Positions 1,284 to 18,959 of a stretch of DNA of 42,052 nucleotides are shown piece after piece. Origin of the DNA: a virus; UHGV virus genome UHGV-0149441; one strand, written 5' to 3'. The notes under the pieces were generated by a model. That model was not told the DNA's origin. It saw nothing but the letters and a program-made list of their open reading frames with translations, and did not search any database. Both the position numbers and the translations under genes were made by a program. Each line of letters begins with the position of its first letter. The stretch's first letter is position 1.

Positions 1284-1375
1284 TTCTTCTTGTGTTTCAT
1301 ACTTCGGTTTAATCTGTTCTACCACTTGTTCGTGATATGGTTTATCCCACGGCCAGTTAATGCTAATCACCTCGT

Positions 1376-3870: not shown

Positions 3871-3887
3871 ACTTACCCTCCATTCCT

Positions 3888-4681: not shown

Positions 4682-4829
4682 TTAAATGAGCGTGGTCGTG
4701 TTCGTCGAAGTCCTTAGGCACTTCCACCTCATCATTTGCAGTTAACTTATAGTACAACTCTCTACCAATCCATTTACCTAACTCGTACATTGCGATAGTG
4801 AACCATATCTTTAATATGCGTTTAATCAT
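4659..4829 (-). CDS. Small hypothetical protein of 56 aa
   Basis: Manual translation. Its start overlaps the stop of the upstream small ORF as ATGATTAA, and its end overlaps the 4238-4681 start. Confidence 0.3.
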   Translation of the reverse strand: MIKRILKIWFTIAMYELGKWIGRELYYKLTANDEVEVPKDFDEHDHAHLNGIYGGY

Positions 4830-4974
4830 CTAAATCATCTCCATGTTCGATATATTCTATAACGTGTTCCAACGCTGATTTATAAGTAAGTGTTATTGAA
4901 TCTTCCTGCTTTGATTCTTCAATATCGCTAATTACACTTTTTAATTTTCCAATTACTTCTTCACTACTTTTCAT
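4822..4974 (-). CDS. Small acidic hypothetical protein of 50 aa
   Basis: Manual translation; RBS TAAGGAG lies upstream and the gene is translationally coupled to the next ORF. Confidence 0.3.
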   Translation of the reverse strand: MKSSEEVIGKLKSVISDIEESKQEDSITLTYKSALEHVIEYIEHGDDLDD

Positions 4975-4986
4975 TCCGTTCACTCC

Positions 4987-5190
4987 TTATCCCAATCTTT
5001 CTTGCAAACGATATAGTTTTCTAAGTTGTAATCTATCGTGCTGACTTAATATACGCTTTGCTTTCTCTTCTGCTTCTTCCTTATCCTCTGCTTCTACAAG
5101 TGTCATTTTCTCGTTAAATCTAGCTTGCTCGATGTGCTTGTGTATATGGCTTGTGCTATCTGTGAATTCTCTGATTAGGAATTGTTTCAC
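4987..5190 (-). CDS. Hypothetical basic coiled-coil protein
   Basis: ORF of 67 aa. Confidence 0.4.
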   Translation of the reverse strand: MKQFLIREFTDSTSHIHKHIEQARFNEKMTLVEAEDKEEAEEKAKRILSQHDRLQLRKLYRLQERLG

Positions 5191-5226
5191 TTCCCCAGCA
5201 CCTCTTTCACTTTTTCTAATATGTCT

Positions 5227-5649
5227 TTACTCCCCTGTGCTTCCGTATGCTCCACGTTCTGATTCTTCATCAAACTCTTGCACCTCCGTTGGCTCTGGTA
5301 ACATTACTGGCGCAATGACTAATTGTGCTAAACGTGTACCTGCTTTAACTACGATTGCCTCATCACCGATATTGTCTGTGATAATTCCAATTTCTTTGTT
5401 ATAAGTGTGATCGATTGTACCTAACGCTACACGTAACTTAGTTTTAAGTGAATTACCTGAACGTGGTCTCACTTGCGCCTCATATCCATATGCTAAATCA
5501 ATTGCAATGTGTGTTGGTACTACGACTGTACTATGTGCTGGAATTGTTGTATCTTCTGCGACATATAAATCTAATCCACTATCTGTTGGATTTGCTCTCG
5601 TTGGCAAGATTGCATTTTCTGATAATAATTTAATTGGTAAAATTCCCAT
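5227..5649 (-). CDS. dut: dUTP pyrophosphatase (trimeric dUTPase)
   Basis: 140 aa with dUTPase motifs (PTRANPTDSGLDLY, RSG, GTIDHTY, GSTG). Confidence 0.85.
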   Translation of the reverse strand: MGILPIKLLSENAILPTRANPTDSGLDLYVAEDTTIPAHSTVVVPTHIAIDLAYGYEAQVRPRSGNSLKTKLRVALGTIDHTYNKEIGIITDNIGDEAIVVKAGTRLAQLVIAPVMLPEPTEVQEFDEESERGAYGSTGE

Positions 5650-5868
5650 TTATTGTTCCTCCAAATCTTTTCTTTTATTCCAAATTTTTATAAGTTTTTC
5701 TGCATTATTGGTATGAACGTGCATCCATGTAGACGGTTGTATTTTGCAATTTTTATTAGTACATTCAATTAATAATGTATTAAAGCTATAACGTATATCC
5801 GGTAGACCACCACAAAATGGACATGGTTTAAATTTTGGACTACTCATCACTACCACGCTCCAAATCAC
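5650..5868 (-). CDS. Lar-family restriction-alleviation protein homologue (zinc ribbon)
   Basis: 72 aa; KPCPFCGG ... IECTNKNC ... WNKR matches the Lar_restr_allev signature (KPCPFCGG...IEC.NC...AI..WNRR). Confidence 0.55.
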   Translation of the reverse strand: MIWSVVVMSSPKFKPCPFCGGLPDIRYSFNTLLIECTNKNCKIQPSTWMHVHTNNAEKLIKIWNKRKDLEEQ

Positions 5869-6298
5869 TTATTTTATATTTTATAGCTTTAAATGCAGTC
5901 AGTAAGTTTCCAAAGTATTCAAACTCATTAGAATTTGATGCAAACTCTTGTCTTGTAGTTAACGTTTCTATTTTGTCTAATGTATATTCTTTTATCTCAT
6001 CAAACACCTCTGCCTTACGTTTAATATCTGCAATATCATTGATGAGTTCGTCGCGTTGTTTTTTAAACGACTTACACTGTTTAAATAATTCATGTATGAG
6101 CATTTCTTCTTTACTCATTACTTTTGATGTATGAGTTTGTAAAGGTGAATAAAAATCTAATATAAGCTGCCAACGTAAATCTACTGATCGTTTTGATGCG
6201 TCCACTAATTCACCAAATACACCGTCGTAGTCTAAATGGTTATTTTTAATATATTCCAATATCTTTTCTTTACTTTTCTCTGTCATCAACCATAGCAC
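5840..6298 (-). CDS. Hypothetical protein
   Basis: 152 aa ORF overlapping the Lar-like gene start. Confidence 0.45.
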   Translation of the reverse strand: MLWLMTEKSKEKILEYIKNNHLDYDGVFGELVDASKRSVDLRWQLILDFYSPLQTHTSKVMSKEEMLIHELFKQCKSFKKQRDELINDIADIKRKAEVFDEIKEYTLDKIETLTTRQEFASNSNEFEYFGNLLTAFKAIKYKISDLERGSDE

Positions 6299-6671
6299 CG
6301 TCCTTCCAAATTAAAGTCATTGTGCCGTCGTCGTTTAAGATATAATAGTTATAATCACTTCTATCTAAAAACTGTCCGATACTACAATTGAAATTTATAT
6401 TAACTTCATTTAAATTGTTTCTATTGATAGATACTAATTTAGGTATCTCCGTTTCTTTCGTAATTTCTTCTTCAATTTCTACTGTGAAAGTGCATGAATG
6501 CGGGTTATAACTTATAACTTCATTTGCAATTATTTCTGGATCGAATGAGTAGTGTTCTTCGTTGTAATTAAACGTATAACCGTCTAACTCTACTTCCGTT
6601 TCTTCCTGCTCTAATAAATGCTTTAAAAATTCTTTAGGTGTCATCTCTACCTTACGTTTAATCTTTGCCAT
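6270..6671 (-). CDS. Hypothetical protein, paralogue of 8688-9062
   Basis: 133 aa. It shares MxKIKRKVEMT, FTVEIxEEITxxTxIP and MTLIWKxG motifs with the 124-aa ORF. Confidence 0.5.
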   Translation of the reverse strand: MAKIKRKVEMTPKEFLKHLLEQEETEVELDGYTFNYNEEHYSFDPEIIANEVISYNPHSCTFTVEIEEEITKETEIPKLVSINRNNLNEVNINFNCSIGQFLDRSDYNYYILNDDGTMTLIWKDGAMVDDREK

Positions 6672-6855
6672 TCCTTACACACTCCCTGTTCCTTTTTATG
6701 TCACACTCACTAACTTTCATCGTCACTCTACTTCCTGCTACCTTAACCACAAAGCCTTTAACACCTAGCTGTCGTAATTCACGCTGTATCTCTGTAGGTG
6801 TCTTGCCTTGTGTGTTGTATTTGTATCGTTGAGATACCGTGTCACTTAGCAGCAT
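6658..6855 (-). CDS. Hypothetical small basic protein
   Basis: 65 aa ORF in an operon context. Confidence 0.35.
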   Translation of the reverse strand: MLLSDTVSQRYKYNTQGKTPTEIQRELRQLGVKGFVVKVAGSRVTMKVSECDIKRNRECVRNGKD

Positions 6856-7456
6856 TTATTTTGTCCTTAACTTCTTTTTGTTTGTGTAATAATTTAACAA
6901 AGTTGATTCCTGCTTTAGTCAGGTCGCGATCAGTCGACGTTAAATTAAGTTTGTTAATGCGCACTAATTCTTTACGACTTACCAATGCTATATTTTCTTC
7001 GCTACAGTCTGACCTGTTTTGATTCAAATGTATTAAACAATATCCTTTGGGCACAGGTCCGTGCTTTTGTTCCCATAAATAATGTGTGTATTGTTTCCAG
7101 CATTCGTTTTTTGAACCTCGTTTTTTGATTTTTATAAACTTATAACCGTCAGTAGTGATTTTTATCGTTCCTAAAGGAAATGTGTTATCGGGCTTTTGTC
7201 CTTTCTTAAATTGAGTTTCAGCGCTTCTACCTCTGGAAGGAAAGCTTTTACCTTTGTTCCAAGAAGGCACACCTTTTTTAAACTTACAATCAACCCCACT
7301 TCTTATCCTTTTTCTCGAACAAAACCCTTTCATTTTATCTGTAGTAACATCAGTGCCAAACTCCTTATTAAACATTTCTGTCATTTCTTTCTTAGTTTTA
7401 CCTTTGATGTTATTACGAATATATTTTTCATGCTCATCAGTCCATACATGTCTCAT
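6842..7456 (-). CDS. HNH endonuclease (HNH_3-like)
   Basis: 204 aa with a C-terminal IHLNQNRSDCSEENIALVSRKE HNH motif. Confidence 0.6.
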   Translation of the reverse strand: MRHVWTDEHEKYIRNNIKGKTKKEMTEMFNKEFGTDVTTDKMKGFCSRKRIRSGVDCKFKKGVPSWNKGKSFPSRGRSAETQFKKGQKPDNTFPLGTIKITTDGYKFIKIKKRGSKNECWKQYTHYLWEQKHGPVPKGYCLIHLNQNRSDCSEENIALVSRKELVRINKLNLTSTDRDLTKAGINFVKLLHKQKEVKDKINAAK

Positions 7457-7461
7457 GGCTA

Positions 7462-7716
7462 TTACTCTCCTAACAACTTAGGGATTTCTGATTCTGCATC
7501 TAATTTTTCATCTTTAAACTTTTGTGCTTGCAGCACTAAACTGCCATTATTAATGATATTTTGAGCTACTTTAGAAACTGCACTAGATCTTTGTAACTCC
7601 TCTTTTAATTCTTCGCCTTTTAAATCTTCATCGCTTACTCTTTCTAATTGTGCAAATAAATGATTGTTTAAATCTGTCAATGTGTTTCTCATTTCATTAA
7701 CCCTCCCACTTCTCAA
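7462..7716 (-). CDS. Hypothetical coiled-coil protein
   Basis: 84 aa ORF. Confidence 0.4.
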   Translation of the reverse strand: MRSGRVNEMRNTLTDLNNHLFAQLERVSDEDLKGEELKEELQRSSAVSKVAQNIINNGSLVLQAQKFKDEKLDAESEIPKLLGE

Positions 7717-8140
7717 ATGCTCTGTTTAGATACCAACGTGCTTTGTCTAAATCTTCTTTACCGTTCTTACGATTAGCTCGACTTATATACTTGATTGCAT
7801 TACCAATCGCAAATGCTAACTCTGGTTTGTAATCTTTAGTGACTTGCTCTATGAAGTCTATAATTTCCATATCTCCATACGTGTAATGCGACGGGTGGTT
7901 AACCTTGTCATCTAATGTCTTTTTAGTTCCTTCATTTCCATTAGGTAATGAGTAAAAATCATAACAATCATCAATAGTCCAAGTTCTCCCGTCAATTGCT
8001 TCTACATCAGCAACCCATCTATCTATATCAAGACTTGACTGAACTAAACGATAAACATTTTTTATTTGCACTGTAATTTCAACACCGTTAACTTCTTGGA
8101 TTCTGATTCTATCGCCTATAATCAAATCTTTAATGCTCAT
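7697..8140 (-). CDS. DUF3310-like phage protein
   Basis: 147 aa with the NHPSHY...MEIIDFIEQ motif typical of DUF3310. Confidence 0.5.
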   Translation of the reverse strand: MSIKDLIIGDRIRIQEVNGVEITVQIKNVYRLVQSSLDIDRWVADVEAIDGRTWTIDDCYDFYSLPNGNEGTKKTLDDKVNHPSHYTYGDMEIIDFIEQVTKDYKPELAFAIGNAIKYISRANRKNGKEDLDKARWYLNRAFEKWEG

Positions 8141-8496
8141 GATCTAACCACCTTTCTAGGGAAGATGTCATTTTCCATAAGGTGCGTGCACCATTTACCA
8201 CGAGGGTGTTTTTGAGGCACTGTGAATAAATGTGGTTTCTTACGTTTCAATTCTTGTAATCTGCGTTGCTCCATTCTCTCTTTATAACTAGCAATTTCGT
8301 CCTCTTTAGGTTTCAAACTATCCCACTCACTACGTCTTACTCCAATAGGTGCTTCTATTGCATCTTCAAACTTCCAACCAGAAGCTAATCTTTGTCTTAA
8401 GATATCTGAATTAATATCTGCTTTTTTCATTTTCTCTACTACATCTGGTGTAATAGAGAAGTATTTATTTTTAACTCTCATTTTTGTCGCTTCCAT
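8137..8496 (-). CDS. Hypothetical protein
   Basis: 119 aa ORF. Confidence 0.4.
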   Translation of the reverse strand: MEATKMRVKNKYFSITPDVVEKMKKADINSDILRQRLASGWKFEDAIEAPIGVRRSEWDSLKPKEDEIASYKERMEQRRLQELKRKKPHLFTVPQKHPRGKWCTHLMENDIFPRKVVRS

Positions 8497-8688
8497 TCAC
8501 TCCACCTCTACCAATTCAATTAGTTTAAAATCTTCGCTCATTAACTCTTTTTCAGGATTCTTACTGATTAAATCTAAAATGCGTTCCTTTTCATCACTTG
8601 CAGTAATTTGATTGTTTACCCAAACTGGATACTTACATCTAACTTTCATTGTTGCTTCGACTGTGACTGTTTCTTCTCTATTAGCCAT
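8497..8688 (-). CDS. Hypothetical small protein
   Basis: 63 aa ORF. Confidence 0.35.
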   Translation of the reverse strand: MANREETVTVEATMKVRCKYPVWVNNQITASDEKERILDLISKNPEKELMSEDFKLIELVEVE

Positions 8689-9062
8689 TACTCATCACCG
8701 ACCAATTCGCCATATTTCCAGATGAGTGTCATTGTATTTCCGTCTTTTAACCAGAATTCTCTACTAAAGTCGTCTTTTACTTGTTCAATAGAATTCCCGA
8801 ACCATTGCGTTGCATCATTATCTTGAAATATCTCAAGCATTTCTGGAATTTTTGTATTTTCAGTAATCTCTTCTCCAATTTCTACTGTGAAAGTTTCATC
8901 TTTATCAACTTCATGCTCTATAAAAACTCTTTCGGCCATATCAAAATGCACATAATGACCATCAATATTGCTATAAAACATTTCACTTTTAATTCCATTC
9001 TTCCATGCCCATGTAATCAACTCTGGTAATGTCATTTCAACTTTCTTTTTAATCTTTACCAT
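8688..9062 (-). CDS. Hypothetical protein, paralogue of 6270-6671
   Basis: 124 aa with shared motifs as described for 6270-6671. Confidence 0.5.
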   Translation of the reverse strand: MVKIKKKVEMTLPELITWAWKNGIKSEMFYSNIDGHYVHFDMAERVFIEHEVDKDETFTVEIGEEITENTKIPEMLEIFQDNDATQWFGNSIEQVKDDFSREFWLKDGNTMTLIWKYGELVGDE

Positions 9063-9465
9063 CCTTCATCTTCTCCTTCTTACGTTTTTTGCGTACCTTG
9101 ATTAGTTCTTCATACGTTATCCACTCTTGACCTGTGTATTTAGGCGCTTTACATATCCACGTGAGTGGTACTTCTCTGTTTTGATATCTAAATATCTTTG
9201 ATTTTATTTTGGCTTCTGGAGTAGGCATACCTTTTACATCTATCACTTCGATTAGCTTGCCATCTTTCCATAAAGCAAAATCTGCTACATAGTTAATAGA
9301 TCTGAAATTTTCAAATTTAGGTTGTAATTCGTACTTAGGTTGCAACTCTATATGGTCATATCCCTTACCTAAGTTACGTTCTAAATATTGGTAGTAGTCG
9401 CATTCAATTTTGCTATCGAACACAAAACCTTTATATTCAACTTTCTTAGCATTGTATTTACTCAC
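9049..9465 (-). CDS. DUF1064-like phage protein
   Basis: 138 aa; the MSKYNAKKVEYKGFVFDSKIECDYYQYL N-terminus is typical of DUF1064. Confidence 0.45.
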   Translation of the reverse strand: MSKYNAKKVEYKGFVFDSKIECDYYQYLERNLGKGYDHIELQPKYELQPKFENFRSINYVADFALWKDGKLIEVIDVKGMPTPEAKIKSKIFRYQNREVPLTWICKAPKYTGQEWITYEELIKVRKKRKKEKMKDGKD

Positions 9466-9475
9466 GTTGTCACTC

Positions 9476-9700
9476 CTACATATCGAATATCGTTGCTTGT
9501 AACCCTAGTTCTTCTTCGTATAGAAGTTCGTATACACCCTTGAAACGTTTCAACTCACTATCAGTCATCTTTTTACTTTCTTCGCTAAAATGAGCGCCTG
9601 TGAGTGATTTAACGATGTTCAAATTAGTCTCGCGTTTCTCTACTTTTATTTCTTCTGTTCCGTCAGGTCTATAAAGATAATACTTTTCCAAAATTGCCAT
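9476..9700 (-). CDS. Hypothetical small protein
   Basis: 74 aa ORF. Confidence 0.4.
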   Translation of the reverse strand: MAILEKYYLYRPDGTEEIKVEKRETNLNIVKSLTGAHFSEESKKMTDSELKRFKGVYELLYEEELGLQATIFDM

Positions 9701-9861
9701 TAGGACACCTCCGTTATTGCCTGTCTGTTGCCTTTTTCTTCTAACTTGGCATTAATTAACTTGATGAGTGCAGCTTGATTCCCACTGCACCAATCAATCA
9801 TTTTTTGAGCATACACATCGGAACACTCAAGTATTTGCATAACATTCTCTTTCGTTACCAT
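9700..9861 (-). CDS. Small hypothetical protein of 53 aa (MVTKENVMQILECSDVYAQKMIDW...)
   Basis: Manual translation. Its ATG overlaps the DnaC-like stop as ATGGTAA, and its stop overlaps the next ATG as TAATG. Confidence 0.35.
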   Translation of the reverse strand: MVTKENVMQILECSDVYAQKMIDWCSGNQAALIKLINAKLEEKGNRQAITEVS

Positions 9862-10625
9862 GCGTCACGCTCCCTGTAGTCATCGCCTAGTACCTTTACG
9901 GTTCTAGCGTTATGTTTCATTCTTGAATTGATCCGTTGCCAATTCATGTTTTGATTAAGTTCTTTATCACTAAAATTTGTAGTGAAGATGTTATTCTTTC
10001 CAACTCTGTTATCTACAATGCTGAATAGTTTATTTAATGTGTGTTCAGTGTTCTCTACACCTATATCATCAAGTACTAGTAAATCTATGTTACTTAGTAG
10101 TTGTACAAGTTCATCTGTTGTTTCTGCAGCATTCTTGTTATATGTCGCTTTGATGCGCTCCATCAACATTGGAATGTGCATAAAAGCGACTGAATATCCT
10201 TCGTTTTTAATTGCTTTAGCTATGGCATACGCTATATGGCTTTTTCCGGTACCATATGAGCCTTGTAAGATTAAAGACTTAGGTTTATCTACCGAGAATG
10301 TTTTAACGTACTCTATGGCTGTTTTTTTGGCGTATATTTGCTTTTCGTTCTGAGGTTTGTAATTATTTACTGTTGCATCTCTTAGCGAACCGTTTACAGT
10401 AGATTGATTGAAGATATTATTTATATATTTTTGCTTGCGTTTCTTCTCTGCTTCTTTACCAGCTTGTATCATTGAACAGTCACAACCATGTCTAAATTCA
10501 TGCCCGTTACTAAACTTATAATAGTCGTATGTGTTCCCACATTTACTACATTTAAGGTTATGTTGTTCTTCTACGATATTTTTACTAGGTTTGATATTTC
10601 TAGCTAAACTTTCCATTGATTGCAT
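9855..10625 (-). CDS. DnaC/IstB-like helicase loader ATPase with an N-terminal zinc finger
   Basis: 256 aa with Walker A GSYGTGKSH, Walker B LLVLDDIG and an N-terminal CSKCGN. Confidence 0.8.
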   Translation of the reverse strand: MQSMESLARNIKPSKNIVEEQHNLKCSKCGNTYDYYKFSNGHEFRHGCDCSMIQAGKEAEKKRKQKYINNIFNQSTVNGSLRDATVNNYKPQNEKQIYAKKTAIEYVKTFSVDKPKSLILQGSYGTGKSHIAYAIAKAIKNEGYSVAFMHIPMLMERIKATYNKNAAETTDELVQLLSNIDLLVLDDIGVENTEHTLNKLFSIVDNRVGKNNIFTTNFSDKELNQNMNWQRINSRMKHNARTVKVLGDDYRERDAW

Positions 10626-10637
10626 TTATAATCACTC

Positions 10638-11426
10638 CTAGTCCCAATAACTCTCGTCGTACTTCATACGTTCTAACTGATCCATGCCACTAGGTTGTAA
10701 TTCTTGGTTGAGGTAACCCTCAAATTTAGTACCAAATAATGTTTCAGGTCTTAGGTACTTCTCCATGTTTGTGCCTTTCCACTCGGCAACTTTGTTGTCT
10801 ATAACTCTTTTAAAGTCATCTAGTGAAAAGCCCTCATCGGTTCTTGCTCGTATGACTGTTTGATTCTTCTTAGTAGTAGACTTGTAATTCTTACCTGTTT
10901 GTTGGTTAAGGTAGTCAATTACATCTTTGTAAGGATACACAGTCGACGAAGGAGACAATATATTATTGTTAGTAATCTCTGTAGTAGTCTTTGTAGTAAT
11001 CTCTGTTAAAGATTCTTGAGTTTCTTCACTATCCATTCTTGAGTTTCTTAAGTTTCCATTCTGAAGTTTCTTAAGAATCCATTCTGAAACTTCTTTAGTA
11101 TCGACTTTATAATGCAAAGTAGGTGCACCATTAGCTTTTTTTAGAGCTGTATCGACGAAACCAAATGACTTAAGTTTTTTGGTTGCGCGTCTTACTTGAT
11201 ATTCGGTTAAATGCAACTCTTCGTACCATTCGTTGTAAGATTTATAAAAATAACCGTCTTTTCTACTTGTTCTATCTGACCAATAAATCATTTGATTTAA
11301 TAACGCTGCGCTTGGGTAATCCTCAGTGATTCTTATATAGATAGTAGGTATAGGAATAATGTTATTTTGACCACTGAATTGAGTAATAATTGATGAAATA
11401 TAATCTCTATTATTCATTATCAGCAC
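10638..11426 (-). CDS. Replication initiation or replisome organiser protein (DnaD-like C-terminus)
   Basis: 262 aa located upstream of the DnaC-like loader. It has an N-terminal replisome-organiser-like region and a C-terminal DnaD/phage replication domain. Confidence 0.6.
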   Translation of the reverse strand: MLIMNNRDYISSIITQFSGQNNIIPIPTIYIRITEDYPSAALLNQMIYWSDRTSRKDGYFYKSYNEWYEELHLTEYQVRRATKKLKSFGFVDTALKKANGAPTLHYKVDTKEVSEWILKKLQNGNLRNSRMDSEETQESLTEITTKTTTEITNNNILSPSSTVYPYKDVIDYLNQQTGKNYKSTTKKNQTVIRARTDEGFSLDDFKRVIDNKVAEWKGTNMEKYLRPETLFGTKFEGYLNQELQPSGMDQLERMKYDESYWD

Positions 11427-12210
11427 CTTCTTTCAGTGCTTTAATTTTGTCTGGTATCTCCCAGTTAGAAATGAATTCTTTGAGTTCATCTGTCATAGGT
11501 ACATCGTTTAGGATCGCGTCATCACCATATAGATATAAAGCACATTTGTTATATACTAATGCAGATTGTTCTTTACTTTTGCTATACATTATTTGATAAC
11601 GGTTGAGTTTATATGAAATTCTACTTAAATAGTTTAATTTTTTTGAACTGTAAGTAACTCCTTTGTATCCTGTTTTGCCCTTATGTTTTGTTTTTTGACC
11701 GTCAAAAGTGCGATACGTTCTACTAGGGACTCGATTGTCATAACCAATCTTATTTTTATATCCATCACTGTTAAAATATTCATCAACGCCGCGATTGTAA
11801 GCTAAAGCTGCATCATCTTCGTTCGAAAACCTACCTAAAAGCTTAGTCTTACCATCTACATATATTTGAGCCCACCATTTCCGGTCTTTTTTGTTGAAAT
11901 TCACGCCTTTATATTTCGAAACGCTTTGTCCTCTTGCTCTTTGGTATCTATTGGCATATCTTAAGTCCACCAAATTATCTTTAGTAAAATAATTATTTTT
12001 TTCTTTTTGAGTGCTACCTTCAACTAAAAAATTAGCTAATGATGTCGTTTTCTTATCACCTTTTTTTATATGTCTTGTATTACCGGTGTAAAACTTATAC
12101 CAAGTATGTTGATTCACTCTTTCGTAATCTTCATCATCTACGAAAATTTCTTCTCCATCTTGTAAAAATATCGATTTAACCATCTTTCTCACTCCCCGTA
12201 CAATAGCCAT
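11410..12210 (-). CDS. AP2-domain DNA-binding protein with two AP2-like repeats
   Basis: YKGVNFNKKDRKWWAQIYVDGKTKLLGRFSNEDDAALAYNRGV and YKGVTYSSKKLNYLSRISY...ALVYNKCAL resemble AP2/ERF (HNH-associated AP2) domains. Confidence 0.55.
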   Translation of the reverse strand: MAIVRGVRKMVKSIFLQDGEEIFVDDEDYERVNQHTWYKFYTGNTRHIKKGDKKTTSLANFLVEGSTQKEKNNYFTKDNLVDLRYANRYQRARGQSVSKYKGVNFNKKDRKWWAQIYVDGKTKLLGRFSNEDDAALAYNRGVDEYFNSDGYKNKIGYDNRVPSRTYRTFDGQKTKHKGKTGYKGVTYSSKKLNYLSRISYKLNRYQIMYSKSKEQSALVYNKCALYLYGDDAILNDVPMTDELKEFISNWEIPDKIKALKEGADNE

Positions 12211-12419
12211 TCAGGTGTTGTCTTGAAAACGAATGCTATCAATTTTATTTTCTCAAGATTGGGAATTCTTTTGCCTTCTTCCCATTGTTTTATACAGAAA
12301 GGAGAAACATATAAGATTGAAGCGAATTCGTTTATATCAAAATCTCTTTGTAATCTTATTTGCTTGATTCTATGAGCTATTTCTTTCTTGTTTTCTTTAG
12401 TTATTACTCTCGAATTCAT
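12189..12419 (-). CDS. HTH (XRE-family) protein
   Basis: 76 aa with an HTH signature. Confidence 0.5.
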   Translation of the reverse strand: MNSRVITKENKKEIAHRIKQIRLQRDFDINEFASILYVSPFCIKQWEEGKRIPNLEKIKLIAFVFKTTPEWLLYGE

Positions 12420-13083
12420 TTTTAACTCCTTTCAACATAGCGTTTAAACGATCATCAACTTTTATCCAGCTATCTTGTAAGATATATTTTTCGTCAAAAG
12501 ACTTAACGCCTATGTTGTGCTGTTCTTGGTGGTGGAATCTGCATAAAGCCAACACTTCATAATCGTAATGCTGCATCTTCTTACGGTTAGCACCACGACC
12601 TATTGCGTAGTGATGTGCAAGGTCGGCATTTGATTCCCTGCATAGTACACAGTTTCGATTGACCGTTGCCCAATACAACATTGATTTGTCCCCACTTAAT
12701 AACTTACTTGTTTCTACTCTCATTGGTATTTGATGATGGAACATAAAAGCGATAATCAGTTCTATCAATTCTCTTGCCACTCTCATTGAACAGTCACGTA
12801 AACTTATTTCATCGTAACCGTTCATAATTTCGAGTTCTGATTGAAACCTTTTCCTTAGCGATTCCACAGGTTCTCCCCAGTGCAACTCAATATCTCTACA
12901 TAATGCAAAAATCTTTTTACGTTGTTCTATTGATAATTTTTTGTTATCAGGTACTTCAACTTCTGCAATGAGTGAGTAACCATTTTCTAATAAGTCAATA
13001 TGACTTTGTTCTAATTCAACACCAGTCGCAACGACGGAATAAGTACCGTCGTTATCTCGCTGGTATCTTGTAATGTGTTGCAT
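12397..13083 (-). CDS. DUF968 (PVL ORF50-like) protein with an HNH-like Cys/His motif
   Basis: 228 aa; the CVLCRESNADLAHHYAIGRG...LALCRFHHQEQH metal-binding nuclease-like motif. Confidence 0.5.
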   Translation of the reverse strand: MQHITRYQRDNDGTYSVVATGVELEQSHIDLLENGYSLIAEVEVPDNKKLSIEQRKKIFALCRDIELHWGEPVESLRKRFQSELEIMNGYDEISLRDCSMRVARELIELIIAFMFHHQIPMRVETSKLLSGDKSMLYWATVNRNCVLCRESNADLAHHYAIGRGANRKKMQHYDYEVLALCRFHHQEQHNIGVKSFDEKYILQDSWIKVDDRLNAMLKGVKNEFESNN

Positions 13084-13094
13084 TTAATCACTTC

Positions 13095-13649
13095 CTAGAA
13101 AGGTAAGTCATCATTACTAATATCAATCGGTCCATTAGCATTTGCAAACGGGTTATCTTGTTTTGTCATTGGCGTTTGCTGTCCGTTGGCTTGTTGCTCA
13201 CGTTGTTTCATTTCATCAGTTTTAGGTTCGGGTTTATTTACGATTTCGTCACCTTTGTTCCAAACTTTTACAAAAGATAATCTGACGAAATACTTTCCTT
13301 GATCTTCGTTAAACTTATTTTTAAGTACGATTGTTCCCATTTTGTTAATTAATCTGTCTGTATCGAAAGTTAAATCAGGCAAATTAAGTTGAATTCCTAG
13401 TCTACTTAATAATTCGATATATTGTCTTTCTTGGAAGTCTTGTTGGAATGGTGGTACAAATTGATTGTGTTTGTATTGTTTACCTTCGTTATTTTCAAAT
13501 ACGATAGTGAAATATCTTCCTTCTTTGTCATTAAATTCAACATCTTTTACTTTAACTGTGAATTCTCCTGCTCCTAAGAAGTCTCCGCCTTTCATAAATG
13601 CCTCTTGATTAGTTTCTTTAGTGTGTTGCGCTTGTCCTGTAATCTTCAT
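13095..13649 (-). CDS. Putative non-canonical ssDNA-binding protein with a C-terminal DDLPF tail
   Basis: 184 aa. It ends in an acidic SSB-type tail (ISNDDLPF) and lies immediately downstream of Sak4. Confidence 0.45.
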   Translation of the reverse strand: MKITGQAQHTKETNQEAFMKGGDFLGAGEFTVKVKDVEFNDKEGRYFTIVFENNEGKQYKHNQFVPPFQQDFQERQYIELLSRLGIQLNLPDLTFDTDRLINKMGTIVLKNKFNEDQGKYFVRLSFVKVWNKGDEIVNKPEPKTDEMKQREQQANGQQTPMTKQDNPFANANGPIDISNDDLPF

Positions 13650-13677
13650 AATTTTATACCGTCCTTATTAGTTATTT

Positions 13678-14454
13678 TTAATTTCCATTTCTGATTGCTT
13701 GTACTACGTCCGTAATGCTAGGGTTTACAAATTTCTTATTGTTAATTGTTATATTGCTTGCATGTCTTATTTTGGTTTCAAATAAATTAGAGGGTTCAGC
13801 GTTAAGCACATACTCATATGACTTTTGTCCGTTCTCCTCATGCTCTTCAATTGTCATTCTTGCTAAAACATCTGATTGACTTACAACTGCTTTTCTTATT
13901 TGATCTTGTGCCTCAATCGTGATAGTGGGATTAATCGTGCTGCCTTCATCGTCTTTATCTTTGTTGATACCTTCATGACCACTTATCGCTAAATGGAATT
14001 GATATTGTTCTTGTAACTTAGAGACATATCTATACATATGAACAATACGTGTAGCACATTCTCCCCAATCATTAAATGTCGGTTTCTTAGTCTTACCATT
14101 CATGATGTCGTCAATAGTGATATCGCGCAGTTTCTGTATTGTTTCAATCACTACTACATCTATTTGCTTTCCGTTTTCTCTTAGCTTCTCAATTACTTGA
14201 GGCAACATTTTTATTACATAAGCAAAGTGTTTGTAGTTTTTTATTTGTACTACTGCGCCATCTTCTGTAACTGTTGTTCCGTCTTCATTAATGTCGAGCA
14301 CAAGTGCGTTATTGTCTTTAGTTAAAAAAGTTGTTTTACCTGTACCGAATTTTCCGTATATGGCAAATTTGTAAAATTTATTAGCATTTTGCTTGCTGAT
14401 GTCTTTTACTCCAAGTTGAGTTAGGATATCCTGTTCTTGTTTTTCTTCTGCCAT
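13678..14454 (-). CDS. sak4: Sak4-like RecA-family recombination ATPase (AAA_24)
   Basis: 258 aa with Walker A YGKFGTGKTT. Sak4 and SSB are typically adjacent. Confidence 0.75.
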   Translation of the reverse strand: MAEEKQEQDILTQLGVKDISKQNANKFYKFAIYGKFGTGKTTFLTKDNNALVLDINEDGTTVTEDGAVVQIKNYKHFAYVIKMLPQVIEKLRENGKQIDVVVIETIQKLRDITIDDIMNGKTKKPTFNDWGECATRIVHMYRYVSKLQEQYQFHLAISGHEGINKDKDDEGSTINPTITIEAQDQIRKAVVSQSDVLARMTIEEHEENGQKSYEYVLNAEPSNLFETKIRHASNITINNKKFVNPSITDVVQAIRNGN

Positions 14455-14967
14455 TTATCTCACCCTCAAACTTCTATTTTGTTTTAGTTCTACTCCTTTG
14501 AGTTCTAAACCACCTTTAACAGCTTTCAACAACTCTTTTTTATCTAGCTTAGGTTCTTGTTCGACGTAATATTGTTTAGGTATTAAACTTTCATCTGTGA
14601 CATCTAAGCTAGGTGGGTTGTTAGCAATGCTGTACGAATTAAGCGCAGTTTTGAACTTCTCTTTTCCAGTTTGTTCCATGACTTCCTGTAAACTTTCTTT
14701 TAAACGTTTGACACCGTTTTGGTTAGAAGTTTTACGTTGTCTTAATCGTTTTATTTCTTCGTCTATAGCATTGTTATCTGCTTCTAAAGACTTAATGACT
14801 GCTACATATCCATCTGCTTTATCTTCGATAGCGTCATTAATACTTGATAAAGTGTCTTTTAAAATTTGTTCGTCTTCTTGTTCTGCAATAAGGTCGTAAA
14901 CTTGTTGGTAACTATCTTTTAATTCGAATAAATTACTCATCAATAAAACACTCCCCTGCAATGACAT
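14455..14967 (-). CDS. Siphovirus Gp157-family protein
   Basis: 170 aa acidic coiled-coil protein preceding Sak4, the typical Gp157 position. Confidence 0.5.
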   Translation of the reverse strand: MSLQGSVLLMSNLFELKDSYQQVYDLIAEQEDEQILKDTLSSINDAIEDKADGYVAVIKSLEADNNAIDEEIKRLRQRKTSNQNGVKRLKESLQEVMEQTGKEKFKTALNSYSIANNPPSLDVTDESLIPKQYYVEQEPKLDKKELLKAVKGGLELKGVELKQNRSLRVR

Positions 14968-15184
14968 CTTTTGCTAATTCAAAATTTCTTTGTAGTTCTT
15001 CATCTGTATGAGTTTCATAGAAACTTAGAGAACTACATTTATATTCATATTTTTGAGAGTAGTGCCAAATGGAAATGTCAACTTTCCCGTCGATAAAATT
15101 TCTAAATTCTACTTTCACTTCTTCATCACTATGCAAAATTAATTTGTTTAAATCATTGGCTATTTTTAAAAGTTTATGTTTCAT
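14933..15184 (-). CDS. Hypothetical protein
   Basis: 83 aa ORF. Confidence 0.4.
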   Translation of the reverse strand: MKHKLLKIANDLNKLILHSDEEVKVEFRNFIDGKVDISIWHYSQKYEYKCSSLSFYETHTDEELQRNFELAKDVIAGECFIDE

Positions 15185-15245
15185 ATTGACTACCTCCGTA
15201 TATTTTGATTAAATTAAGTTGTATATTTTGATTAGTGTTTGACTG

Positions 15246-15422
15246 TTAGGCGTTGGCGCGTCTTTCAGTCTTTTTTGTTATCTCAAGCCACTTTTCCCAA
15301 AAGAATGTGCTAAAGATTAGCGTTAACATCGCAATTCCTAATACTGTTGTGAAACCACCTCCTAAAAGTAATGTGATGATCATTGCGATAAACATAGTCA
15401 TGTAACTTAGTAAGTACTTCAT
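15246..15422 (-). CDS. Small membrane protein of 58 aa (MKYLLSYMTMFIAMIITLLLGGGFTTVLGIAMLTLIFSTFFW...)
   Basis: Manual translation; RBS AAAGGAGGT lies upstream and the product is largely hydrophobic. Confidence 0.45.
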   Translation of the reverse strand: MKYLLSYMTMFIAMIITLLLGGGFTTVLGIAMLTLIFSTFFWEKWLEITKKTERRANA

Positions 15423-15467
15423 CTTGTAACCTCCTTTTTACGATTTAAATTTTGTTCCATGTTTTCG

Positions 15468-15476
15468 TGCTATAAT
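15468..15476 (+). promoter_or_regulatory. Extended -10 promoter element (TGcTATAAT) for the plus-strand moron
   Basis: A perfect TATAAT preceded by TGn lies about 40 nt upstream of the ATG at 15517. Confidence 0.45.
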
Positions 15477-15516
15477 TCTTTTATCGCTACTGCGATAGAT
15501 TGGGGGTGTAATAAAT

Positions 15517-15795
15517 ATGGGTAAATATTTAATAACTTATGACCTTAATAGTCCAGGTCAAAAATATACTGATGTACTTAAGGTAATTAGAAATGAAATA
15601 TCAAATGGTTATTGTAGTTATTGGAAATCTGCTTACTTAGTAAATTCATCTTTATCAGTTGATGGAATAACTCAAAAAATCCAACCTTATTTAGATGATT
15701 CGGATAGACTATTAGTAATAGAAGTCAAAAATATTTATCAAGGTTGGCACGAAAAAGATGAATGGGATTTAATAAAGCGTATTATGAACGCATAG
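15517..15795 (+). CDS. Hypothetical 92-aa protein on the opposite strand to the early operon (moron). Its predicted beta-alpha-beta-beta-alpha-beta layout resembles Cas2/VapD-type small ferredoxin-fold proteins, but this is weak.
   Basis: It has its own promoter and an RBS (GGGGGTG). N-terminal YLITYDL followed by a helix, then DRLLVIEV, is reminiscent of Cas2 beta1/beta4 strands. Confidence 0.5.
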   Translation: MGKYLITYDLNSPGQKYTDVLKVIRNEISNGYCSYWKSAYLVNSSLSVDGITQKIQPYLDDSDRLLVIEVKNIYQGWHEKDEWDLIKRIMNA

Positions 15796-15929
15796 TCGCT
15801 TTTCCTTTTCTTTTCCATTTGCCATTAATAGAATCGTAATTGTATTTAGTTTCACCCTTAGCATTCCTAACTTCCTCGACCAAAAGTGCAGTTAGGAGTG
15901 CTATTTTAATGAGTTGTAGTTTGTTCATC
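15783..15929 (-). CDS. Small protein of 48 aa with a hydrophobic N-terminus (MNKLQLIKIALLTALLV...). Its 3' end overlaps convergently with 15517-15795.
   Basis: Manual translation; a strong RBS AGAGGAGGT lies upstream. Confidence 0.4.
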
Positions 15930-15941
15930 GGTAAACCTCCT

Positions 15942-16160
15942 CTAAAGTGCCGTTTCTGACACCATTAAATTTTGTTCTATAAAGTCAATTGCCGGTCTAA
16001 TCTTGATGTAGCGTTTATGATTCTTGCCAAATCTGTACATACATTTCTCTTGGAACTCTTTATTGCTATAAACGTGCTTTTCTAAATCATTTTTAGAAAT
16101 GCCACTTACTTTTACGAATTCTTTGGCGTCTGCGAACCCAATGTATTCCATTGCTATCAC
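15942..16160 (-). CDS. Hypothetical small protein
   Basis: 72 aa ORF downstream of the antirepressor. Confidence 0.4.
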   Translation of the reverse strand: MIAMEYIGFADAKEFVKVSGISKNDLEKHVYSNKEFQEKCMYRFGKNHKRYIKIRPAIDFIEQNLMVSETAL

Positions 16161-16163
16161 TCC

Positions 16164-16877
16164 TTATACTTCGTTTTCAAAGTCCATTTCTAGTTGCTTT
16201 ATTTTGTATAATGTCGCTTGTGACGGGAACCAGTTAGCAACCATTGATAAAACATCATCAAAGTGTTTTTGTCTTACATTTGTTCTTGATGTTGCGCCTG
16301 TCATCTTTTTGACTTCTGAATTGATGTCTCGGAATAATTCACTGCGTTGTTTTTGATTTGTTATTGCATGTATCTTTTGAATGTGAGCAACTCGTTGATT
16401 AATCGTTCTAGACAATAAGTTGTAATCTCCTGTGTCTAACTTTTGGTTTTCTTTCAAATCGATAACATCTGCTTTCACTGTCGCAATTTCTTCTTTAGTT
16501 TGTTCCGTCGCTTTAAACATCAACTTGAGTGCTTGCATTGGATCGCTTGGCACTTGGTAAGTTCCAGTCTTTCTTAAAGTCGGTAAAACTTCTGATGTCA
16601 CCCAACGTTTGAAACGTTTAGCTGATTCTAATTTTGATGAGAAGATTAAACTATATAATCCTGATTCATTTATTAGCGTTACATTTTGCATTCCTCCAGG
16701 TGTCTGTATTTTACCGACCCCTTTATCTTCAGCATCAACATGTTCTCTGATTGCGTCTGCCGTTCTTTTGTAACCTAAAATGTCTGCAACATCTTTCCCT
16801 ACAAAACATGGTTCCTCGTTTACTGTTAATGTTCTTACTGGTAATTCTTCGAAATTAAATACTTGTAAATCTCGCAT
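16164..16877 (-). CDS. Phage antirepressor (Bro-N / KilA-C type)
   Basis: 237 aa with an N-terminal Bro-N-like domain (FNFEELPVRTLTVNEEPCFVGKDVADILGY). Confidence 0.7.
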   Translation of the reverse strand: MRDLQVFNFEELPVRTLTVNEEPCFVGKDVADILGYKRTADAIREHVDAEDKGVGKIQTPGGMQNVTLINESGLYSLIFSSKLESAKRFKRWVTSEVLPTLRKTGTYQVPSDPMQALKLMFKATEQTKEEIATVKADVIDLKENQKLDTGDYNLLSRTINQRVAHIQKIHAITNQKQRSELFRDINSEVKKMTGATSRTNVRQKHFDDVLSMVANWFPSQATLYKIKQLEMDFENEV

Positions 16878-16892
16878 TTGATTTCCTCCTTA

Positions 16893-17153
16893 TTAAATTG
16901 TTTGGTGTTGTTTTTCTTCGACTAAAACGTATTTAAAATACGATTCATCTTTTAAAAAAATAATCTCGTCGATAGAGACTTCTAAAACTTTTGCAATTTT
17001 AAATGCGTCTTTAGGTTTGATGATTTCTGGATTATTCTCCCAAATGTTATAAGTTGATGGAGAAATTCCTAATTTATAAGCGAAAGATGATTGAGTATAA
17101 CCTTTTCTTTTTCGCCATTCATCTAACTTCAAGTTTTGTTTTATGTGATTCAT
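16893..17153 (-). CDS. cro: Cro-like HTH regulator (XRE family)
   Basis: 86 aa with an HTH (YTQSSFAYKLGISPSTYNIWE), divergent from cI. RBS AAGGAGGT. Confidence 0.7.
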   Translation of the reverse strand: MNHIKQNLKLDEWRKRKGYTQSSFAYKLGISPSTYNIWENNPEIIKPKDAFKIAKVLEVSIDEIIFLKDESYFKYVLVEEKQHQTI

Positions 17154-17345
17154 TTTTTTACCTCCTTGTTAAGCTCTGATTAGAGTATATCGAATTATAA
17201 ATACGATTGCAAGTATTTTTCGTAATTTATTTTAAAAAATGCGTAACTTTAATTTAATAAATCGTATTTTAGATGTTGCAATTACGATTTTTCATAGTAT
17301 AATAATAAGTGTCAAAACATCATATATATAAGGAAGGTAATTAAA
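17154..17345. promoter_or_regulatory. cI-cro divergent promoter and operator region
   Basis: Repeated TACGA/TCGTA half-sites and TTGCAA motifs at about 17199-17224 and 17260-17290. A cI-side promoter reads TTGCAA (17276-17281), 16 nt, then TATAAT (17298-17303). Confidence 0.5.
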
Positions 17346-17984
17346 ATGGCTTTCAAACATTCCATCAAAGAAATTAGACTGAACAATAGATTATCAAAAG
17401 TTGAAATGGCAAAAAAATTAGATGTTTCCGAAGGTACTATTAGAATGTGGGAAAACGGCAAAAACGAACCTAGAATGGGTATGATTGAGAAAATTTCTAG
17501 TTTGTTTCATGTTTCAAAAGGATATCTATTAGGAGAAATCGAAGAAGCTACAATCCCAGAAATCGATAACGAAATTGATATTCCTTATTATGGTAAAGTT
17601 TCTGCTGGTAACTTTGAAGAAATGACGGTTGATAATAAGACTCTCAAAGCGCCATCTTTTGTTTTCAGTGGTCGCAAACCTAGCGAATGTATAGCTTTAC
17701 AAGTTAACGGCGATAGCATGAATAAAATACTTGCTAATGGTTCGTATATAATCGTACATGACTATAGAATTAATCAAGATTATAAATTAAACAGTAATGA
17801 TATTTTAGTTTTACGATTAGGTGGAGAATATACAGTAAAACGTGTAAGACTTACGGAAACCAAATTACATTTAGAACCAGTTAGCTATTTTGATGAATTC
17901 AAAACAAATACATATGACATTGAAAATACTAACGAAATAGAAGTTATCGGTAAAGTTATATATAACTATCAAAAGTTCGATTAA
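17346..17984 (+). CDS. cI: CI-like repressor: an N-terminal HTH and a C-terminal S24 (LexA-like) autopeptidase
   Basis: 212 aa with an HTH (VSEGTIRMWENGK) and an S24 Ser/Lys dyad context (GDSM ... K). Confidence 0.8.
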   Translation: MAFKHSIKEIRLNNRLSKVEMAKKLDVSEGTIRMWENGKNEPRMGMIEKISSLFHVSKGYLLGEIEEATIPEIDNEIDIPYYGKVSAGNFEEMTVDNKTLKAPSFVFSGRKPSECIALQVNGDSMNKILANGSYIIVHDYRINQDYKLNSNDILVLRLGGEYTVKRVRLTETKLHLEPVSYFDEFKTNTYDIENTNEIEVIGKVIYNYQKFD

Positions 17985-18035: not shown

Positions 18036-18959
18036 ATGAAAAAAGTTTTATTTATTTTATTATCTTGTTTTTTAGTTTTAGTGGCATGTAGTAACAACAA
18101 TAACAACTCAAAAAAATCAACTTCCGTTGATGAAAATAAAGTGCAGTTCACTAACGATACTTTAGTCCTTGATCAAGCCGTTTTAAAAATAAAAGATACT
18201 TTTTTGGTAAACGATAAAGATTTAGATAACGGAAAGAAATTATTAGCCTTTAAATACGAAGTTAAAAGTAAAGACGGGGACGAACAAATCACACCAATGA
18301 ATGTTTGGATATCGTCGATGGAGACTACACAAGATAGTGAAAATACTGAAAGTAAACTTGAAGTTGGTCCAACGCCTAATACTGGTAAATTCGAAGAATG
18401 GGACAAACACAACAATGATGTAATTAAGAAAGGTAAAACTGCTAAAGGTATTATTACTTATGAATTAGAAAATGATAAGCAAGTGACACTTAAAGCTACT
18501 AAAGGCACAGAGGGTAAAAAACTGGGTACCAAGAAAATAAATATTAGTAAACTAAAGACCGTAGATTATTCTGCAGCAGATGATATTACAAACGATTCTG
18601 CTAGTAGTTCAAAAGAAGGCAATAAAGATGTTGCGAATAACGAATCAGAAAGCACATCTAAAAATGATAATGGCAAATCACAAGACAATAATGGTAATAA
18701 TGAACGTACGCAAGGTAAGCAAGTGCAAACAGCACAAAGTAATAATCAGCAATCCGAACAACAAGACCCAAACTCTCCTAGTTACCAAGAATATTTAAAT
18801 GCTAAAAAACTTACAGAAAACATTCAAAATAATCCGGATAAATTTCAACATATAGGTGGTGGGCCTGGTATGGCATTATCTAGTCCTAACCAATCGTATG
18901 ATAGTTTCAAACAAGACGTAACTAAAGCAAGAAATGAGTCACAAGCATTACAACAATAA
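18036..18959 (+). CDS. Prophage-encoded lipoprotein (DUF4352/DUF5067-like N-domain, long S/N/Q-rich low-complexity C-terminus)
   Basis: Signal peptide with lipobox LVAC-S. It is co-oriented with cI between cI and int, the position of lysogeny-expressed morons. Confidence 0.7.
   Translation: MKKVLFILLSCFLVLVACSNNNNNSKKSTSVDENKVQFTNDTLVLDQAVLKIKDTFLVNDKDLDNGKKLLAFKYEVKSKDGDEQITPMNVWISSMETTQDSENTESKLEVGPTPNTGKFEEWDKHNNDVIKKGKTAKGIITYELENDKQVTLKATKGTEGKKLGTKKINISKLKTVDYSAADDITNDSASSSKEGNKDVANNESESTSKNDNGKSQDNNGNNERTQGKQVQTAQSNNQQSEQQDPNSPSYQEYLNAKKLTENIQNNPDKFQHIGGGPGMALSSPNQSYDSFKQDVTKARNESQALQQ

Follow-up and report, generated by a model that had tools for sequence, protein, structure and literature searches.

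Two defense/counter-defense pairs of staphylococcal phages, Tha-Ith of Staphylococcus aureus prophages (PMC11087260) and Tai-Ati of phage phi80 (PMC11364771), are organized as noncontiguous operons, in which a gene expressed during lysogeny is overlapped by a small antisense gene of the lytic program. Antisense transcription contributes to such switches, according to Rostol et al. We examined a comparable arrangement in the virus genome UHGV-0149441, a complete temperate siphovirus of coagulase-negative staphylococci that is given in reverse orientation; the whole stretch analyzed, 42,052 nucleotides (nt), is called the window below. Within its early lytic operon lies a mobile two-gene module, made up of an antisense gene for a 92-amino-acid (aa) protein and a convergent 48-aa open reading frame (ORF) on the lytic strand. 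As in Tha-Ith and Tai-Ati, the candidate pair combines a gene predicted to be expressed in lysogeny with a small, overlapping antisense lytic gene, it is situated inside the lytic operon of a staphylococcal phage, and the small gene also occurs in phages that lack the larger one. The differences are equally clear. Tha is a HEPN protein with no sequence or fold relation to the Cas2-like 92-aa protein, and the orientation here is mirrored, with the defense candidate as the antisense insert and the small gene as part of the main lytic operon. Furthermore, anti-phage activity and its inhibition have been demonstrated for Tha and Tai, whereas the pair described here is known from sequence comparison and from the expression of a homolog.

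By fold, the closest described proteins are small nucleases. BPSL1038 of Burkholderia pseudomallei (PDB 7vxr) has been placed in a "Cas2/VapD nuclease sub-family" (PMC10491678), and an Asp and a Ser are the catalytic residues both in VapD (PMC11980593) and in BPSL1038 (PMC10491678). Like BPSL1038, the 92-aa protein stands alone, with no CRISPR context, and has an Asp at the end of beta1 and a Ser downstream. The two proteins are nevertheless just 8-10% identical, with no match detectable at the sequence level, and they differ in the spacing of these residues (D9-x28-S38 in the 92-aa protein versus D11-x20-SST in BPSL1038). In addition, BPSL1038 is chromosomal in a proteobacterium and has no described partner micro-ORF, whereas the 92-aa gene is a prophage moron with a convergent one. 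Cas2 (PF09827) shares with the 92-aa protein a ferredoxin-like core and an "hhhhYDh" beta1 strand carrying the catalytic-type Asp, and the alignment to Bacillus halodurans Cas2 adds a Ser at beta2 and, preceding beta4, a "D..D.hhh" motif. However, Cas2 has a beta5/tail that serves in dimer swapping and Cas1 contact, in place of which the 92-aa protein has a C-terminal helix (G76-W77...W83), and Cas2 is encoded with cas1 and an array, whereas the 92-aa gene sits in a prophage and, judging by its homolog in phage phi13, is expressed in lysogeny. Finally, VapD belongs to the same superfamily and has an Asp/Ser pair (D11/S46) to which D9 and S38 may correspond; in its type II toxin-antitoxin systems a small protein, VapX, VapW or VapY, neutralizes the nuclease by binding (PMC11980593). 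Those systems are co-directional and co-transcribed, whereas the pair in the window is convergent and follows the opposite expression logic, and profile searches of Pfam, NCBIfam and PDB sequences detected no homology of the 92-aa protein to VapD or its antitoxins.

The gene family, its transcription in lysogeny and the automatic annotation of some relatives as Cas2 are already on record, while a literature search found no paper on the function of the family, on its Cas2/VapD fold or on the partner micro-ORF. Relative to the known pattern of a prophage defense gene with an antisense inhibitor, what is new is best described as the fold of the effector and the mirrored geometry.

The Cas2/VapD-like protein and its convergent partner

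The first-pass annotation of this locus had likened the 92-aa protein to Cas2/VapD-type small nucleases, and both structure and sequence comparison support the likeness. The best structural matches of the protein were Cas2 proteins and the Cas2/VapD-like nuclease BPSL1038, the latter being the closest in shape. The Foldseek list consisted mostly of Cas2 (best E 2e-3), and a fold search of BFVD returned uncharacterized proteins only. In sequence, the protein matches PHROG 1090, a family of unknown function (E 6e-31), and has 28 close homologs. An exhaustive profile search enlarged the family to 3,183 cluster representatives at E<=1e-3, nearly all of them ~90 aa long. At 50% identity the family thus comprises ~3,200 clusters; its members are common in prophages of Firmicutes and extend to P2-like phages of Klebsiella. 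The link to Cas2 emerged only from this exhaustive search of representatives together with a Pfam scan of individual members, in which CRISPR_Cas2 matched 42 of the 92 sampled at E<=1 (best E 1.8e-9). One relative, annotated as cas2 in the phage StB20-like, scores 35.9 bits against PF09827 (cut-off, 23.8) and aligns to the window family with 97.7% probability (E 1.5e-12). When the family profile was compared with PDB sequences, the best match was B. halodurans Cas2, a weak one (E 0.042) in which the YD, S and D..D motifs were aligned. PF09827 did not match the window protein itself even at E<=1, and PDB-sequence searches with that protein and with a profile of its close homologs gave nothing useful, so its sequence link to PF09827 is transitive only.

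Across 92 family members, Y8, D9, L10, Y17, S38, D60 and G76 are conserved in at least 90%; the counts are 86 of 92 for D9, 87 of 92 for S38 and 92 of 92 for D63. D9 aligns with the Asp of the YDV motif of B. halodurans Cas2, at the C-terminal end of beta1, and S38 with the Ser of the Cas2 "NSVF" motif. The model of the protein ends in an alpha-helix (H80-91), and G76, W77 and W83 are conserved. The fold matches, the chain of profiles leading to Pfam Cas2 and the conserved Asp and Ser thus support the 92-aa protein as a stand-alone member of the Cas2/VapD ferredoxin-fold superfamily, with a putative nuclease role. It is not a bona fide CRISPR Cas2, given its helical C terminus, the lack of a direct Pfam match and the lack of cas1 or an array: the window contains no cas1, no CRISPR array and no CRISPR-like repeats, the 25 commonest Pfam families in the neighborhoods of 23 related loci did not include cas1, and none was annotated beside the gene in eleven annotated phage regions that carry a homolog.

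Outside the window, the Cas2-like gene lies antisense in the early region at more than 30 loci from Staphylococcus, Clostridia, Veillonella, Paenibacillus, Lactococcus, Enterococcus and Bacillus. Tetragenococcus is also represented among the loci retrieved through this gene, some of which lie in phages of Lactococcus, Clostridium, Bacillus and Enterococcus, and its neighbors across the loci include cI/Cro, integrase or recombinase, ImmA and antirepressor genes. A distant relative (28% identity) in the Klebsiella P2-like phage ST512-KPC3phi13.6 (positions 3001-3270 of locus L060) adjoins the portal gene and is annotated "CRISPR-associated endoribonuclease" in its record. The portal-adjacent region of P2-like phages is presumably a defense hotspot. 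Two records are probably mislabeled or contaminated. OP712464.1, "Pseudomonas phage PSV3" (1,988 nt), contains a staphylococcal-type copy of the gene (55.4% identity over residues 4-86, E 2e-21) with the same identity, coverage and E value as the S. aureus phage copies, and a protein attributed to "Streptomyces pharetrae" (P0004) is 76% identical to the window protein.

The gene and its partner travel together as a cassette. Positions 15100-16200 of the window are 95-96% identical to the S-CoN_Ph18-24 phages, which also carry the cassette, while phages BE21 and BE28 have a ~50-bp spacer in its place. Alignment showed that these two phages are collinear with the window on both flanks and that promoter, 92-aa gene and 48-aa ORF are all missing together from each of them. 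With a promoter and a terminator of its own, and with its presence or absence among otherwise similar phages, the cassette behaves as an autonomous moron antisense to the early operon, as the first-pass annotation had proposed. That the 92-aa ORF is the sole plus-strand gene of the early region likewise held, in that no second convincing one was found in the minus-strand block 1-17153. In the phage StB20-like (KT429161; locus L037) the same slot is occupied by an Abi_alpha gene on the plus strand (282 aa; Pfam, 157 bits; candidate PDC-S47 in PADLOC), which converges on a 37-aa ORF with the common N terminus MNKLQLIKIALL. The insertion site is thus a hotspot for genes in lysogenic orientation. 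Within positions 1641-4702 of the same record, plus-strand genes have been inserted at three separate places in the early operon of StB20-like, and a small minus-strand ORF converges with each of them. They encode Abi_alpha (282 aa), an unknown protein of 118 aa and the 87-aa "cas2" that exceeds the Pfam Cas2 cut-off.

The convergent 48-aa ORF is present, although its span and its overlap with the 92-aa gene each had to be corrected by one nucleotide (15782-15928 rather than 15783-15929, and 14 nt rather than 13). Its strong Shine-Dalgarno sequence was confirmed, but its description as hydrophobic was not: the maximum Kyte-Doolittle value in a 19-residue window is 1.12, below the level of a membrane span, and the net charge is +7. 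Such a partner is a recurrent feature of the family. Among the 32 loci found via the Cas2-like gene (L004-L035), ~27 have a convergent small ORF at or overlapping its 3' end, as do phages D4044, CP51, phi4B1 and phiFL1A. The C-terminal motif F-[VI]-P-[EC]-D-S-x-G-K-[HY] (in short, F-x-P-E-D-S-x-G) occurs in 22 of the 32 partners, and its codons vary at synonymous positions, which marks it as coding sequence rather than an RNA element. The search also worked in reverse, since partners found independently in nonstaphylococcal sequences (P0229, P0216 and P0219) had a convergent Cas2-like ORF in 10 of 10 loci. In phi13 the motif is canonical (FTPEDSKGF), and B122_18, the partner in S. aureus phage B122 (MNRLRIIKIALLIVILAEEIRSAKKIKKFTPEDSKGF...), has both the motif and the N terminus of the window ORF, whose own motif is degenerate (YNYDSINGKW). 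We conclude from these comparisons that the 48-aa ORF belongs, as a divergent copy, to the family of partners that accompany Cas2-like genes. The two genes are co-inherited, though not absolutely: joint loss in BE21 and BE28 stands beside solo partners elsewhere. One partner type, P0202, was solo in all six loci examined, in Staphylococcus epidermidis prophages beside a Tad2-like gene, and another, P0225, occurs both paired and solo.

The gene directly upstream of solo P0202 (loci L046-L051, ~1600-2150) is the Tad2-like one (PF11195, Thoeris anti-defense), so this stretch of the early operon may collect anti-defense genes. Other lineages have unrelated convergent partners. A second partner type, found in phiFL1A (gp04, L065 2776-2937; ...IIDESVIYVEVKK) and in D4044 (D4044_033, L062 2751-2945; ...NIDDSVISVEIKK), bears a loose likeness to a part of the Cas2-like protein, its alpha2-beta4 segment (LDxxDxLLVIEVK), which recalls the derivation of VapW from VapD. 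We tested the descent of these partners from that segment and rejected it, as the scores of 2.7-2.9 bits were equaled by 17-19 of 300 shuffles and are not significant. One metagenomic prophage contig (L043) carries two pairs of Cas2-like gene and partner, at 2001-2373 and 3716-4088, ~1.7 kb apart.

Transcription signals and expression of the phi13 homolog

The extended -10 element and the ribosome-binding site that had been assigned to the 92-aa ORF are both where they were placed. By itself, the -10 element is not above chance, since TGNTATAAT has 5 copies in the window against 4.1 expected, and a generic promoter/terminator scan called neither the promoter nor the terminator of the gene; the promoter was missed because its -35 region is poor. 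The significance of the -10 box lies instead in its conservation across homologs and in a mapped start. The same element, at the same distance, precedes homologs in eight other lineages (among them phi13/B122, L056/L058, StB20-like, SpT99F3, phiFL1A, L015 and L027), and at the homologous promoter of phi13, TGGTATAAT, the transcription start has been mapped experimentally, 7 nt downstream of the -10 (PMC9694928 supplement). Aligned to that start, transcription in the window would begin at A15483, the second base of a perfect palindrome, TATCGCTACTGCGATA, so that the palindrome would form a hairpin (AUCGC-UACU-GCGAU) at the extreme 5' end of the mRNA. The 48-nt stretch that contains it folds no better than shuffled sequence (z -0.71), and Rfam gave no match above threshold in 14900-16300. 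The palindrome was also considered as an operator, which is disfavored: it occurs once in the window, it is unrelated to the cI-cro repeats, and phiFL1A and L040 have hairpins of different sequence at the equivalent 5' position. Given that these homologous hairpins share a place and not a sequence, we favor an mRNA 5' hairpin, which might stabilize the transcript. Separately, the 9-mer TTACGATTT at 15438-15446, ~40 nt upstream of the inferred start, recurs at 17259-17267 and 17282-17290 within operator-like repeats between cI and cro. The window has only these 3 exact copies, which could represent a repressor half-site or have arisen by chance.

At the other end of the unit, an intrinsic-terminator-like hairpin sits within the N-terminal coding part of the 48-aa ORF and predicts a plus-strand transcript of ~425 nt. 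It is kept, with G-U wobble and compensatory changes, in B122, in StB20-like and in loci that have only the small ORF, and its U-tract is on the plus strand only. Promoter, 5' untranslated region (UTR) and terminator are all conserved between the window and B122/phi13, although the proteins are merely 55% identical.

This homolog, found in S. aureus phages phi13, B122, phiSLT, phiETA2/3 and others, lies antisense between orf20-like and rep genes. In phi13 it is SAOUHSC_02218, equivalent to B122_19 and likewise in PHROG 1090. It resembles the window gene in its partner ORF and its terminator, and its promoter/5' UTR is nearly identical; it differs in belonging to the replication module (orf20-like/rep), whereas the window gene follows the antirepressor. 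Published data for phi13 place a lysogenic-direction transcription start in all four conditions directly after ...TGGTATAATTTTGTTA (PMC9694928). In uninduced 8325-4 lysogens SAOUHSC_02218 reaches ~3,100-4,400 reads per kilobase per million mapped reads (RPKM), against 0-45 for its neighbors, which places it above sak (RPKM ~1,500-1,800) and among those prophage transcripts that are most abundant in lysogens; the lytic neighbors are induced by mitomycin C (PMC9694928). A peptide of the phi13 homolog, EISNGHC*NYWK, has also been detected by mass spectrometry in CoAlation proteomics (PMC5989533). Expression in lysogeny, which the first-pass annotation had expected of the window gene, is therefore borne out for this homolog by its mapped start and its high uninduced RPKM.

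In the phi13 start table (PMC9694928, supplementary file 2), entries 18-19 are two low-level "lytic-direction" 5' ends inside the micro-ORF, which map within the terminator hairpin and immediately past it. Processing of the sense/antisense RNA pair, and not true initiation, may account for them. The locus is also unevenly annotated. Neither of the two annotations of phi13 that were examined (AF424783 and the gene table of PMC9694928, which is based on NCTC 8325) includes the ~50-aa partner, and the Cas2-like ORF is unannotated in several of the reference records examined, namely phi13 (AF424783; L039), phi4B1 (L064), phiSLT and tp310-3. The phi4B1 record has an ORF of the minus strand, XO26_0034, drawn over it, and in phi13 the rep coding sequence is drawn overlapping its start.

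A proposed defense pair and the alternatives to it

We propose that the module encodes a lysogeny-expressed defense or exclusion protein together with an inhibitor encoded in the lytic operon, following the logic of Tha-Ith, and we assign this reading a probability of roughly 0.45. The 92-aa gene, with its strong extended -10, 5' hairpin and terminator, would be transcribed in the direction of the repressor and integrase genes, that is, during lysogeny. The ~50-aa basic micro-protein would be made only once the early operon fires, after induction or infection, because its gene lies on the lytic strand, converging on and overlapping the 3' end of the first. In lysogens the Cas2-like protein would accumulate and, whether as an effector of defense or exclusion or as a latent nuclease, be directed at incoming phages or other mobile elements, and the micro-protein would turn it off when the resident prophage goes lytic, with head-on transcription helping to keep the two states mutually exclusive. 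Solo copies of the micro-ORF in related phages would then act as counter-defense. The layout is that of a noncontiguous operon, with one gene of the pair antisense, embedded in an operon of the opposite program and served by its own promoter.

Several observations weigh against this proposal. The 92-aa protein of the window matched nothing in PADLOC, NCBIfam or Pfam. The motif of the 48-aa ORF received no score against a profile built without staphylococcal sequences, a test that avoids circularity, and what places this ORF in the partner family is therefore its N-terminal stretch of 24 aa, its location and its kinship with B122_18 and P0202. In the staphylococcal micro-ORFs that N terminus coincides with the terminator hairpin, so its conservation could be driven by the embedded hairpin and not by the peptide. 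Pairing is not obligatory either, as 10 of the 32 Cas2-like loci have no partner with the motif and the partner also occurs alone. Lastly, the SAOUHSC_02218 transcript fell just ~1.3-fold after mitomycin C in a rep-deletion mutant (PMC9694928), so any transcriptional shut-off is modest.

The proposal matters in part because phi13 is a clinically important S. aureus converting phage whose strongly transcribed homolog is still listed as of unknown function, and a Cas2/VapD fold with a conserved convergent partner turns this anonymous ORF into a testable hypothesis of a defense gene with an off-switch. If it is correct, the noncontiguous-operon principle would extend to a new class of effector in many gut and skin Firmicutes, and Cas2-like proteins would have a role independent of CRISPR. 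There is a benefit for annotation as well, since the gene is unannotated, or overlaid by an ORF on the wrong strand, in several reference phage records. A wider generalization can be drawn, in which the stand-alone Cas2/VapD-fold family would be an unrecognized class of lysogeny-expressed anti-phage effectors, each with a fast-evolving convergent micro-protein inhibitor, and orphan inhibitors circulating in other phages would serve as counter-defense; this we regard as doubtful. Were it true, the Cas2 fold would have a defense role outside CRISPR, and the finding would be relevant to the old idea that toxin-like nucleases gave rise to Cas2.

A serious alternative, although we judge it unlikely, is that the module stabilizes lysogeny. 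Head-on transcription would block a leaky early operon, or a Cas2-like RNase would cut leaky early mRNA, and the recombination and replication genes downstream would be kept off until the micro-protein or a surge of early transcription relieved the block at induction. Such a role would account for the invariant placement of the module, always inside the early operon, upstream of recombination/replication genes and head-on, and for the extreme abundance of its transcript in phi13 lysogens, and it would be in keeping with the antisense contribution noted by Rostol et al. It fits less well with a cassette that is dispensable, being absent from close relatives, that changes position in the operon (it follows the antirepressor in the window but separates orf20 from rep in phi13) and that gives way to Abi_alpha in the same slot of StB20-like. 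Moreover, strong purifying selection acts on the 92-aa protein and has kept its catalytic-type residues, so the module does not serve transcription alone.

A second possibility, and an improbable one, is a VapD-type toxin-antitoxin or addiction module in which a Cas2-like toxin and a micro-protein antitoxin would stabilize the prophage. Membership in the Cas2/VapD superfamily with the Asp and Ser conserved, the precedent of small proteins that neutralize VapD toxins (VapX, VapW and VapY) and the tight linkage of the two genes all speak for it. The expression pattern, however, is opposite to the logic of a classical system, with the putative toxin highly expressed in healthy lysogens and the putative antitoxin in a repressed lytic operon, and it is on this ground that we disfavor it. 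The genes also converge and are not co-transcribed, Cas2-like genes exist without the partner, and no match to the VapD, VapX, VapW or VapY families was found when PADLOC was added to the Pfam, NCBIfam and PDB-sequence searches.

We give still less credence to a function directed at CRISPR, in which a phage-encoded Cas2 mimic would poison the host Cas1-Cas2 complex and so block spacer acquisition, or hijack adaptation in another way. The homology to Cas2 invites the idea, with some relatives above the Pfam Cas2 threshold and annotated cas2, and S. epidermidis can carry type III-A CRISPR-Cas. It is disfavored by gene context and host range: cas1 and arrays are absent from the window, cas1 is not in the top 25 Pfam families around the 23 loci, and the family is common in the S. 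aureus phages phi13, phiSLT and phiETA2/3, whose host rarely has CRISPR-Cas. The C-terminal alpha-helix, in place of the Cas2 beta5/tail that contacts Cas1, is a further objection, and the conserved partner micro-ORF would be left without a role. A type V system like GhoS/GhoT, in which a Cas2-fold RNase antitoxin would cleave the mRNA of a toxin, the divergent two-span membrane peptide of 58 aa, whose size is close to that of GhoT, is highly improbable and largely refuted by the lack of co-occurrence, as many phages carry the 58-aa gene but no cassette (BE21, BE28, L046-L051 and L057) and the Cas2-like gene has other neighbors, with no co-inheritance, in phi13, B122, phiFL1A, CP51 and clostridial loci.

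Coordinates and neighboring features

The features of the cassette and its surroundings are collected in Table 1. On the plus strand of the phage are the cI-like repressor, a DUF5067 protein and the integrase, and on the minus strand Cro, the antirepressor and the recombination, replication and late genes.

Table 1. Positions of the cassette, its predicted signals and adjacent genes in the 42,052-nt window
Feature	Position	Strand	Remarks
92-aa ORF, ATG start, PHROG 1090	15517-15795	+	Solo Cas2/VapD-superfamily protein
48-aa convergent ORF, PHROG 1902	15782-15928	-	Early (lytic) operon; 14-nt overlap with 3' end of 92-aa gene
Accessory cassette (moron)	15423..15928		~500 bp; from alignment with sister phages
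Extended -10, TGcTATAAT	15468-15476	+	From sequence; kept upstream of homologs; -35 poor
Perfect palindrome, TATCGC-TACT-GCGATA	15482-15497	+	From sequence
Shine-Dalgarno of 92-aa ORF, GGGGGTG	15502-15508	+	8 nt before ATG; conserved in B122/phi13
Intrinsic-terminator-like hairpin	15859-15907	+	14-bp stem UAGCAUUCCUAACU...AGUUAGGAGUGCUA, then UUUU; from folding
Shine-Dalgarno of 48-aa ORF, AGGAGG	15936-15941	-	7 nt before ATG; in shared backbone sequence
58-aa two-span membrane peptide, PHROG 5815	15246-15422	-	Backbone early gene flanking the cassette
Antirepressor	16164-16877	-	
cI-like repressor	17346-17984	+	

The 58-aa ORF, which had been described as a membrane peptide divergent from the 92-aa gene, is present and has two membrane spans. 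The accompanying picture of a geometry with small membrane partners finds no support: the 58-aa gene belongs to the phage backbone, and the 48-aa product is basic and not hydrophobic enough for a membrane span. The plus strand has another terminator-like hairpin at 15241-15276, within the 3' end of the 58-aa ORF and with U6 behind it. Its folding energy is -15.5 kcal/mol (z -3.4), the minus-strand counterpart being much weaker, and 3 of its base pairs show compensatory changes in CoN_Ph21 and BE28. Just upstream of it is a promoter-like sequence, TTGACT-18-TAAATT, at 15186-15215 (+), and a ~55-nt antisense small RNA from the 15186-15276 region is possible.

Farther away, the DUF5067 protein (307 aa, 18036-18959, plus strand) is encoded between cI and the integrase gene in lysogenic orientation; it has a lipoprotein-like N terminus and could be a surface or exclusion factor. 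In the early region, three tandem 23-nt repeats (ATTCTTGAGTTTCTTCACTATCC-like) at 11012-11102 (and 10961-11006) lie inside a 262-aa early ORF (10638-11426); they resemble iterons and could mark a replication origin.

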